Positions 44,514-46,268 of a DNA stretch of 64,000 bases are shown piece by piece. Made by a program: the position numbers and the translations under genes. Position 1 is the stretch's first letter. Each line of letters opens with the position of its first letter. Under the pieces are notes generated by a model. That model saw only the letters and a program-made list of their open reading frames with translations, searched no databases and was not told the origin of the DNA. Source of the DNA: Octopus vulgaris. Lineage: Eukaryota. The stretch is taken from positions 32,116,001-32,180,000 of the forward strand of contig OX597826.1 of NCBI GenBank assembly GCA_951406725.2. Reading direction: 5' to 3'.

Positions 44514-44720
44514 AAAGTTAATCCAAACATGAAAACACAAAGACAAAACACAACAACGCGAGGACGTGGAACAAGTATAGTATTATTGGCTGCTCAGGAA
44601 AGAAGGAAAGAAGGAGGGTTTAACGTTTCGAGCGGAGCTCTTCATCAGAAACATAGGAAAAGGAAAGATCCAAAGAAGGGAAGACGGAGGAAAAAAAATC
44701 GCCAACGGTACACATGTGGT
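44514..44720 (-). mobile_element. (TA)n-embedded ~200-bp non-autonomous Penelope-like element carrying a hammerhead motif
   Basis: Colinear second copy at 46053-46268; TA microsatellite flanks; hammerhead core on the minus strand. Confidence 0.7.
44618..44652 (-). ncRNA. Minimal type I hammerhead ribozyme motif
   Basis: GUUU-CUGAUGA-A-GAGC(UCC)GCUC-GAAA-CG-UU-AAAC: 4-bp stem I, 4-bp stem II, loopless palindromic stem III (ACGU), GUU cleavage triplet. Confidence 0.7.
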
Positions 44721-44854
44721 TATATATATATATATATGTATATATATATATATATATATATATATATATATATATATATATATATATATAAATAGTAATG
44801 CAATACGAGAGTATTGCTTTCCAGTAAAGAATAGCCCGTGAGGAAAAATTACAC

Positions 44855-44976
44855 ATAAAAGCAAATAAATGGCACAACGAAGTACCGATATTTACTGGAA
44901 AATAGCGTCGTATTTATTATGTTCGGTATTTTCCAGTAAATATCGGTACTTCGTTGTGCCATTTATTTGCTTTTAT
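44855..44976. repeat. Perfect 50-bp inverted repeat with 22-nt spacer
   Basis: 44855-44904 is the exact reverse complement of 44927-44976. Confidence 0.95.
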
Positions 44977-45359
44977 TATATATATATATATATATATATA
45001 TATATATATATATATATATATATATATATATATATATATATGAATATGTATGTATGTATGTACGGATGTATGTATAATCATATATATATAGTCCAACCCA
45101 ATGCTAGCAGAAGTTTGGATGAAGATTTGAGGCAGGATTTTACGGTCAGATAATGTTCCTGTTGTTTCCAAGAAATAGATAGCTTTATTCCACAGGTCTT
45201 TGAAAATGCAGAACACCTGGTCATAATGTTAACAAGGGATGTCACACATAGAATACATAAACATTGATGCACATACGTGCACCCTCAAGCATGTATGTAC
45301 ACATACATATACATATGTATATGTATGCATAAACCCCACCAAATACACATATATATATC

Positions 45360-45720
45360 TTTTATTTGTTTTAGGTATTAGACTAAAACTATGCTGGGGT
45401 TTTAATTGAATGAATTGACCCCACTGTTTATTTTTTTTAAGCTTGGTATTTATTCTATCGGGATCTTTTGCTGAACTGTTTGTTTACAGGGATGTAGACA
45501 AACCAATACCAGTGGGGGACAAACACAGGCACAAAGACACACACACATAGATTCATATTTACATATATGTGTGTGTGTGTGTGTGTATAAGATGGGCTTC
45601 TTTCAGTTTGTGTCAGCCCAAGATCATTGTACAATACACTTGACCAAGGTACCATGCAGTGGGACTGAACCTGGAACTATGTGTATGGGAAGTAAACTTC
45701 TTGCCACACAGCCATGCCTA
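45360..45720 (-). mobile_element. CORE-like SINE, decayed, reverse orientation
   Basis: Reverse complement of the 5061-type element. Confidence 0.75.
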
Positions 45721-46052
45721 TGCATGCATGTATACAAATACATACGTGCATACACAGATATATATATATATGTGTGTGTGTGTGTGTGTGTATGTGTGTT
45801 TATGTGTGTGTGCATGTTTGTGTATGTATAATTGTATATGTATATATATGTATATATATATATATGTGTGTGTATATATATGTGTATATATATCTATATC
45901 TATCTATCTATCTATCTATCTATCTATCTATCTATCTATCTATATATATATGTGTGTGTTATATATATATATATATATATATATATATATATATATATAT
46001 ATATATATATATATATATATATATATATATTTCTCTTTTTCTCATACATATA

Positions 46053-46268
46053 AAGTTAATCCAAACAAGAAAGCACAAAAAACACAACAACGCGAGGACA
46101 TGGAACAAATATAGTATTATTGGACACTCAGGAAAGAAGGAAAGAAGGAGGGTTTAATGCTTCGAGTGGAGCTCTTCATCGGAAACATAGGAGAAGGAAA
46201 GATCCAGAGAAGGGAAGACAGAAGAAAAAAAATCGCCAACGGTACACACGCAGTCACATTTTGAAAGA
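46053..46268 (-). mobile_element. Second copy of the Penelope-like element; hammerhead core mutated
   Basis: Colinear with 44514-44720; core at 46152-46186 reads CCGAUGA...GAAGCAUU. Confidence 0.72.

Follow-up and report, generated by a model that had tools for sequence, protein, structure and literature searches.

Small hammerhead-bearing elements embedded in TA microsatellites, on the coding strand of an octopus protocadherin gene, raise the question of whether they form a retrozyme-like family of their own or belong to a larger element, and of whether the ribozyme could cut the protocadherin pre-mRNA. The question was followed in the window, by which we mean the whole 64,000-nucleotide stretch of Octopus vulgaris DNA analysed, and from there into the rest of the genome.

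The hammerhead motif and the related copies in the window

Read directly, the minus strand from 44652 to 44618 is GUUU CUGAUGA A GAGC UCC GCUC GAAA CG UU AAAC, exactly the sequence originally predicted, and it holds the CUGANGA...GAAA...UH core with a predicted scissile bond at 44622/44621. A full type I descriptor scan returned this segment as the single match in the 64-kb window, which confirms the hammerhead, and its assignment to the minimal type I class with a palindromic ACGU stem III was right. Genome-wide, the 35-nt motif has 1021 exact matches and its reversed control none, so that it does not occur by chance. The Rfam check that had also been suggested did not recover it, as the window gave no match at the gathering threshold and no hammerhead among the matches listed by E-value (150 of 273). 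Rfam and the descriptors that require CUGANGA overlook most of these motifs.

Table 1. Coordinates of the features discussed (window positions unless a contig or locus is named)
Feature	Position	Strand	Remarks
Minimal type I hammerhead	44618..44652	(-)	Stem I GUUU/AAAC, CUGAUGA + extra A, stem II GAGC/GCUC, GAAA, loopless ACGU
Solo pLTR, subfamily A1 (U4 core)	44514..44720	(-)	4.1% from A1 majority; 3′ end GGATTAACTTT into (AT)n
Solo pLTR, subfamily A2 (C4 core)	46052..46267	(-)	Starts at shared 5′ boundary CTTTCAAAATG; 3.6% from A2 majority
Old partial A-type pLTR	53447..53559	(-)	Decayed core CCAACGA..AAAA; profile match E 6e-11
Solo pLTR, sister PLE family B	53891..54078	(-)	Family core CUGUNGA, copy CUGUAAA; 6.7% from B majority
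Very old A-type relic	57066..57113	(-)	Weak match, E 0.005
Protocadherin large exon	14180..17107	(-)	Splice acceptor 17108/17107; ATG at 16963; cadherin repeats
Part of protocadherin GT-AG 5′-UTR intron	17108..64000	(-)	67.2 kb total, to C13:32200315 (window-equivalent 84,315)
Young PLE loci	C10:97.80-97.83 Mb (L236-L238); C16:15.98-15.99 Mb (L239-L240); L241-L255		Tandem arrays on C10 and C16

Profile searches found five related copies in the window, all on the minus strand, at 44.6, 46.2, 53.5, 54.0 and 57.1 kb (Table 1). The sole intact core is that of the 44.6-kb copy, the others reading CCGAUGA..GAAG, CCAACGA..AAAA, CUGUAAA and CCAACAA; the 46.2-kb core is broken by U4C, by GAAG (A15.1G), by a C.A mismatch in stem II and by CA in stem III. 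The original prediction had taken the copies for one family, but they comprise members of subfamilies A1 and A2, two old A-type relics (53.5 and 57.1 kb) and, at 54.0 kb, a member of a sister family, B. Two stem changes in the 54.0-kb copy had been read as covariation: CUUU/AAAG in stem I is real at the family level, a compensatory change from G-C to C-G in 1 of 10 pairs, whereas GAGU/GCUC is a private C>T, the family-B majority being GAGC/GCUC. In the stem comparison, 88.9% of 90 cells were paired, with one two-sided pair change, and 30 of 500 shuffles scored as high.

The window holds other repeats as well. Beside the 44.6-kb copy, between two TA tracts, lies a near-perfect, MITE-like palindrome of ~180 bp (44797-44975), which scored against mir-577 merely as a hairpin; and five interspersed repeats of ~400 bp (5067-5457, 42632-43086, 50895-51386, 56537-56927 and 60980-61367), 75-86% alike and often adjoining TA tracts, are probably ordinary SINEs.

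Abundance was sampled in 60 evenly placed 10-kb stretches, that is, 600 kb of the 2.8-Gb genome, which held 12 family-A copies, nine family-B copies and no ORF matches. The estimates are ~56,000 copies for family A (95% range 29,000-98,000) and ~42,000 for family B (19,000-80,000). The sampled stretches also showed type I hammerheads of canonical appearance with no relation to family A or B, on the minus strand of L153 and on both strands of L170, the latter as an inverted pair.

The parent Penelope-like element

ORF fragments of a Penelope-like element (PLE) lie directly upstream in 2 of 30 motif-selected copies. A search with one such fragment gave 40 scored loci, and 15 of the 20 that were extended contained a family-A pLTR: in nine it follows an RT + GIY-YIG ORF, in six it is a clean upstream repeat, and in L125 and L129 it stands on both sides. 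The 44.6-kb copy matches the pLTR of the ORF-bearing L121 at 93.8% identity over 130 nt, and the 46.2-kb copy has 93% identity to each of the two pLTRs of L129. In four of five loci, a family-B pLTR stands ~0.8-1 kb behind a homologous endonuclease (~50-65% identity). The repeat is also found flanking RT + GIY-YIG ORFs, and on these sequence grounds the window elements are solo pLTRs of an EN+ PLE. The PLE connection was right, the autonomous RT + GIY-YIG partner that was to be looked for is present in the same genome, and the short copies were rightly called non-autonomous.

A young lineage of this element retains intact frames. An RT-core search gave 136 scored matches, many with near-identical scores, from which 17 loci with long open frames were taken; 11 of these 17 assembled loci carry ORFs of 949/950 aa, 99.5-99.9% identical among the ten compared, arranged in pLTR-ORF-pLTR units of 6.2-kb period and in 2- and 3-unit tandems. 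The hammerhead pattern of the lineage has 1477 exact matches, a count that includes a sibling subfamily. The 949-aa protein shows GLRF, DKG, YIDD and, at its C terminus, GIY-YIG with CCHH (motifs at 241, 354, 596 and 854-899), its endonuclease reading GLIY-CIKCNLC-YVGQT followed by two histidines; the Pfam matches to RVT_1 (E 0.001) and to GIY-YIG (E 0.011) fell below the cut-off. The RT-EN linker is CX4CxxC, of the general form CX2-5CxxC, namely CSRSRCNTC in family A and CSRPRCRTC in family B. None of the runs is recorded as RNA. Assembled contigs aligned to a young copy extend over the pLTR and parts of the ORF, one of them spans the cut site by the mapping rule applied, and a back-joint is not listed; as contigs cannot show ends, this speaks neither for nor against cleavage. 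The search yielded no intact A1 parent, L121 being broken. Another candidate partner, an abundant GIY-YIG PLE family with 781-aa frames (L067, L072), was rejected for want of a match between its 3′ region and the element; it is a second, unrelated young PLE family whose frames encode RT, CxxC linker and GIY-YIG and whose 3′ region is rich in repeats, and no hammerhead descriptor match lies within ~1.5 kb of its endonuclease.

The C-terminal GIY-YIG with CCHH, the CX2-5CxxC linker and the DKG motif are as described for Neptune-clade EN+ PLEs in the sections of Craig et al. (2021, PMC8557442) considered here, and so are a microsatellite bias, partial tandems and inverted copies. In the octopus, partial-tandem pLTRs of variable length occur in L125, L129 and L241-L255, inverted abutting copies occur in L057, L191 and L329, and the large majority of the 70 + 30 copies measured run straight into (AT)n at the 3′ end, which bears out the predicted (TA)n targeting. 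The parent may accordingly be called a C-terminal EN+ PLE of the Neptune type, a clade assignment made by motifs rather than by a tree. It differs from the elements in those sections of PMC8557442 in two respects: canonical hammerheads are universal there, whereas the octopus lineage with intact ORFs is U4C, and the octopus 3′ UTR is a 2-3 kb CA-rich tract. This (CA)/(CATA)-rich tract was seen in L015, L043, L053, L059 and L129 (4030-6110), and through it the family may seed part of the genome's microsatellite load.

Single hammerhead-bearing pLTR copies are a known kind, the subject of Cervera and de la Pena (2014, PMC4209133), in parts of which they are called 'probably related to truncated PLEs', with Lottia and Crassostrea as molluscan examples; no cephalopod was found in the searched part of the supplement. 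As in those parts, the octopus hammerheads are type I with an extra base after A9, G10.1-C11.1, a palindromic C-G at 15.2/16.2 and a short stem I, mostly in single copies. Unlike the hammerheads described there, however, they have a stem II of only 4 bp, and their dominant cores are CCGACGA and CUGUNGA, whereas the published consensus is CUGANGA with one U3-A8 variant.

The original prediction had gone further and set the copies apart as a retrozyme-like family, which is not supported, since a PLE that is autonomous and present in the same genome has this unit as its terminal repeat. There are likenesses to animal non-LTR retrozymes, as portrayed in portions of PMC7229834 and 10.64898/2026.07.22.740005, in the 170-400-nt non-coding unit, the type I hammerhead, the pLTR ancestry and the many monomers. 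However, these sources define retrozymes by tandem hammerhead-bearing units and circular RNAs, whereas the octopus copies are dispersed single pLTRs with their ORF-bearing parents present. The pLTR ends lie ~95 nt and ~115 nt from the cleavage site, no array of ~200-nt period is among the TRF matches listed for the window (150 of 155), and no head-to-tail units, each with a hammerhead, were seen in the window or in L005, L007 and L129, so that by the tandem-unit definition the element is not a retrozyme.

An independent retrozyme- or SINE-like family, in which a ~215-nt RNA transcribed from the solos amplifies itself with the PLE protein in trans, could still be imagined from the defined unit length and fixed ends, from the excess of solos over ORFs (12 pLTRs and no ORF match in 600 kb), from the inferred promoter that every solo would carry, and from the proposal, in the relevant part of 10.64898/2026.07.22.740005, that retrozymes are pLTR-derived. 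We consider it highly unlikely, as the solo pLTR variants are found too on ORF-bearing copies, the unit ends do not match the cleavage site, and neighbouring copies in L005, L007 and L129 are parted by TA tracts or other DNA. A run of T7-8 early in the unit would moreover stop Pol III, which such runs terminate. A Pol III SINE reading was also rejected by eye: GCTCGAAAC is B-box-like, but there is no good A box and the T7-8 run follows.

Core variants, copy ends and the proposed run-off origin

With the rest of the motif fixed, the genome contains 4704 matches to CCGAYGA (U4C), 1021 to CUGAYGA and 171 to CCAAYGA, and the CUGANGA core does not hold majority status, A2 and A0 being U4C and B being A6U. 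In the young lineage (A0), 96 of the first 100 matches have CCGACGA, cleavage is predicted after GUC and stem I contains a U.U mismatch; one of its members, L248, has U4 in both pLTRs and is a natural revertant. The family-B pattern has 9756 exact matches; of the first 100, 95 carry U6, and position 7 takes any of the four bases, where U7 may partly reflect CpG decay. In family A, U4 is linked to its own tail variant (23/24 U4 copies vs 4/37 C4 copies), and U4 marks a real minority subfamily, A1, of which the 44.6-kb copy is a member. CpG decay was rejected as the origin of the canonical core: its mirror product CCAAYGA, at 171 against 1021 for CUGAYGA, indicates that it accounts for a small part of the U4 copies. 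The family consensus, by which the original prediction was to be judged, thus speaks half against it, the majority being without CUGANGA.

Over the hammerhead, A0 and A2 share a block of 33 nt without a single difference, while elsewhere in the pLTR they differ at 30 of 145 aligned positions, which argues that the motif is under selection and not simply dead. By analogy with natural variants, the altered cores in most copies would likely cut poorly. U4C is a viroid variant of much lower in vitro activity, the viroid staying infectious, and A6C is a low-activity phage variant (PMC3088659, in part) that favours Mn2+ (PMC7151607, in part); both alter the same positions and lower Mg2+ activity (PMC3088659, PMC7151607). 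In what these sources report, U4C (viroid) and A6C (phage Bcep176) are rare single cases, whereas the octopus variants are fixed across thousands of copies. Our literature search found no natural hammerhead with A6U. Lunse et al. (RNA Biol) are said to have described dimer cleavage of PLE hammerhead variants and may already list U4C or A6U.

The 3′ end of the pLTR is fixed, GGATTAACT or GGATTAACTTT followed by ATAT, and at the inner edge of an upstream pLTR this junction reads on as TTATA(TA)C, which matches the target. The 5′ ends were taken from 70 copies picked solely on the 35-nt motif, namely the first 30 U4 copies and 40 of the first 43 C4 copies on C1 (the three left out being two in a close inverted pair and one other; L278 and L279 share flanks). 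Counted from stem I, 63 ends lie at -28 to -83, including 31 at -72 to -83, one lies at -94 and six lie at least 260 nt away. The boundary ~82 nt upstream of the ribozyme is Inr-like (TCATT/TCTTT-CAAAATG), the 46.2-kb copy in the window begins exactly at it, and five chimeras of an ORF fragment and a pLTR are joined at about -80 (L032, L054, L122 twice, L132). Among 30 copies of the young lineage, nine end at or before -92, two of the short ones at the homologous TCACCATGTG, 21 are long, and none ends between -93 and -206; their upstream repeats measure 157 to >1400 nt. The share of long copies is 21/30 in this youngest lineage vs 6/70 in the older A1/A2, so that the excess of short copies is not constant. 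Truncation at a constant rate would not yield such a pile-up of 5′ ends and such a gap, and recombination between pLTRs was rejected as the source of the solos since upstream repeats of such varied length would not give one boundary. The boundary would instead be the RNA 5′ end, likely the transcription start site, and the transcription start of Penelope does lie in its pLTR, according to a section of PMC2377424.

We propose, as the probable origin, that the solos are 3′ pLTRs of Neptune-type PLEs made by run-off from uncleaved RNA at (TA)n. First, the element endonuclease would nick the (TA)n tract, and RT would start at UUAUA just past the pLTR, at its 3′ edge. RT would then run off the RNA 5′ end ~215 nt later, leaving a short copy, or move on into the downstream pLTR and 3′ UTR, leaving the long copies. 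Run-off needs an uncleaved RNA template. The hammerhead would be a weak, dimer- and protein-dependent ribozyme, dispensable for insertion, and the copies in the protocadherin intron would be passengers.

By analogy, this run-off model agrees with in vitro work on PAc, a lizard PLE (Poseidon of Anolis; Frangieh et al., 2024, PMC11167929), wherein RT starts internally at the junction of the pLTR with the downstream ORF on an uncleaved RNA template, the target is likewise AT-rich, the hammerhead is protein-assisted and hammerhead-dead mutants still insert normally in vitro. However, the PAc start lies at a site that is not target-homologous, ~111-118 nt into the ORF, whereas the inferred octopus start lies ~320 nt before the ATG, at a TTATA matching the (TA)n target; and the PAc paper is without a description of an in vivo 5′ boundary, of which the octopus has a genomic one.

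The same boundary could arise if RT paused strongly on a template that is continuous or circular. Under a circular version, with the same PLE pLTR origin, dimeric cleavage of both pLTRs and ligation would produce a template circle, the short copies would be early stops at a strong pause, and the U4C and A6U cores would be active in vivo. It would suit the preservation of the motif beyond its flanks, the free variation of position 7 in family B (A, C, U, G) between fixed neighbours, the compensated stem I pair and the infectivity of the U4C viroid, and the 157 to >1400-nt upstream repeats and 2-3-unit tandems are as rolling-circle copying predicts (PMC4209133, in part). But a circle offers no end at -82 that would account for the boundary or for the chimeras with their joints at that point. 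Stem I of the young lineage has a U.U mismatch besides, and the PAc hammerhead-dead mutants insert normally in vitro. The predicted hammerhead-dimer fold is far worse than the competing duplexes, at -0.9 vs -24.7 kcal/mol for A0 and -7.3 vs -23.9 kcal/mol for the 44.6-kb copy, energies that leave out tertiary contacts and are weak evidence. We judge the circular template improbable.

A bolder reading can also be drawn, which we offer tentatively and hold to be doubtful as a whole. The ~100,000 octopus-type genomic copies might be in vivo PLE 'strong-stop' products, with their 5′ edge marking the start site and pLTRs renewed by a strand transfer of the retroviral sort, which leads from the RNA 5′ end into the downstream pLTR; the amplifying lineage might use an attenuated hammerhead (U4C; in the sister, A6U) that leaves the template uncut until protein or a second copy licenses cleavage.

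The protocadherin intron and wider meaning

All five window copies lie in sense orientation inside the 67.2-kb 5′-UTR intron of the protocadherin gene, which bears out the predicted sense position within an intron, though not necessarily within the first one. The contigs of four runs (presumed RNA, from at most four studies) stop at 17110, and a 175-nt loose end common to the contigs of two runs maps once in the genome, behind the GT donor at C13:32200315. An upstream 5′-UTR exon was noted from C13:32200316 onward (L231:1498-1675), 67.2 kb from the coding exon, and more exons may lie still further upstream. The common orientation, which had been remarked on, stands for the window but is lost over the whole intron, where five sense and two antisense copies (p=0.45) indicate no orientation bias; among neighbour pairs in 178 loci, 18 have the same orientation and 15 the opposite.

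Self-cleavage of the pre-mRNA at 44622, as suggested originally, is unlikely. By the geometry of the dimer model in a section of PMC4209133, the core of one hammerhead in a pair cuts the site of the other, and the sole nearby partner, at 46.2 kb, is broken; the dimer fold also lies far above the computed minimum, which is weak evidence, and spliced contigs are present in the four runs. That the 44.6-kb hammerhead has been kept or co-opted to cut this pre-mRNA might be argued from its canonical core and sense position, and from the five sense copies within 13 kb. We find the idea barely credible, for the 4.1% divergence of this copy is typical of its subfamily (mean 4.2%), ~1000 exact equivalents exist elsewhere, its partner in cis has a broken core, orientation over the whole intron stands at 5:2 and the contigs are spliced. 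Cleavage of the protocadherin pre-mRNA in trans would be possible but unsupported, a host role of the copies is unsupported, and for protocadherin itself the finding is probably neutral.

An annotation of octopus repeats lists 30 recently active Penelope families, with ribozymes unmentioned in the portion of PMC13282606 concerned, and our literature search, whose coverage of PLE hammerhead variants was incomplete, found no paper on the octopus families described here. As far as searched, two things differ from what is in print: U4C and A6U cores prevail through whole families in successful lineages, and a 5′ boundary is visible in the genome.

In conclusion, the significance of these elements lies with the PLEs. 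The regeneration of pLTRs is said, in part of PMC2377424, to have 'no obvious mechanism', and the purpose of the hammerhead in PLEs is treated as an open question in PMC4209133, PMC8557442 (each in part) and passages of PMC11167929. In the octopus genome there are intact ORFs in a young lineage, sisters of it that differ at single core positions (U4, C4, U6), revertants and a sharp 5′ boundary, which together make the questions of pLTR regeneration and of the hammerhead's purpose directly testable.
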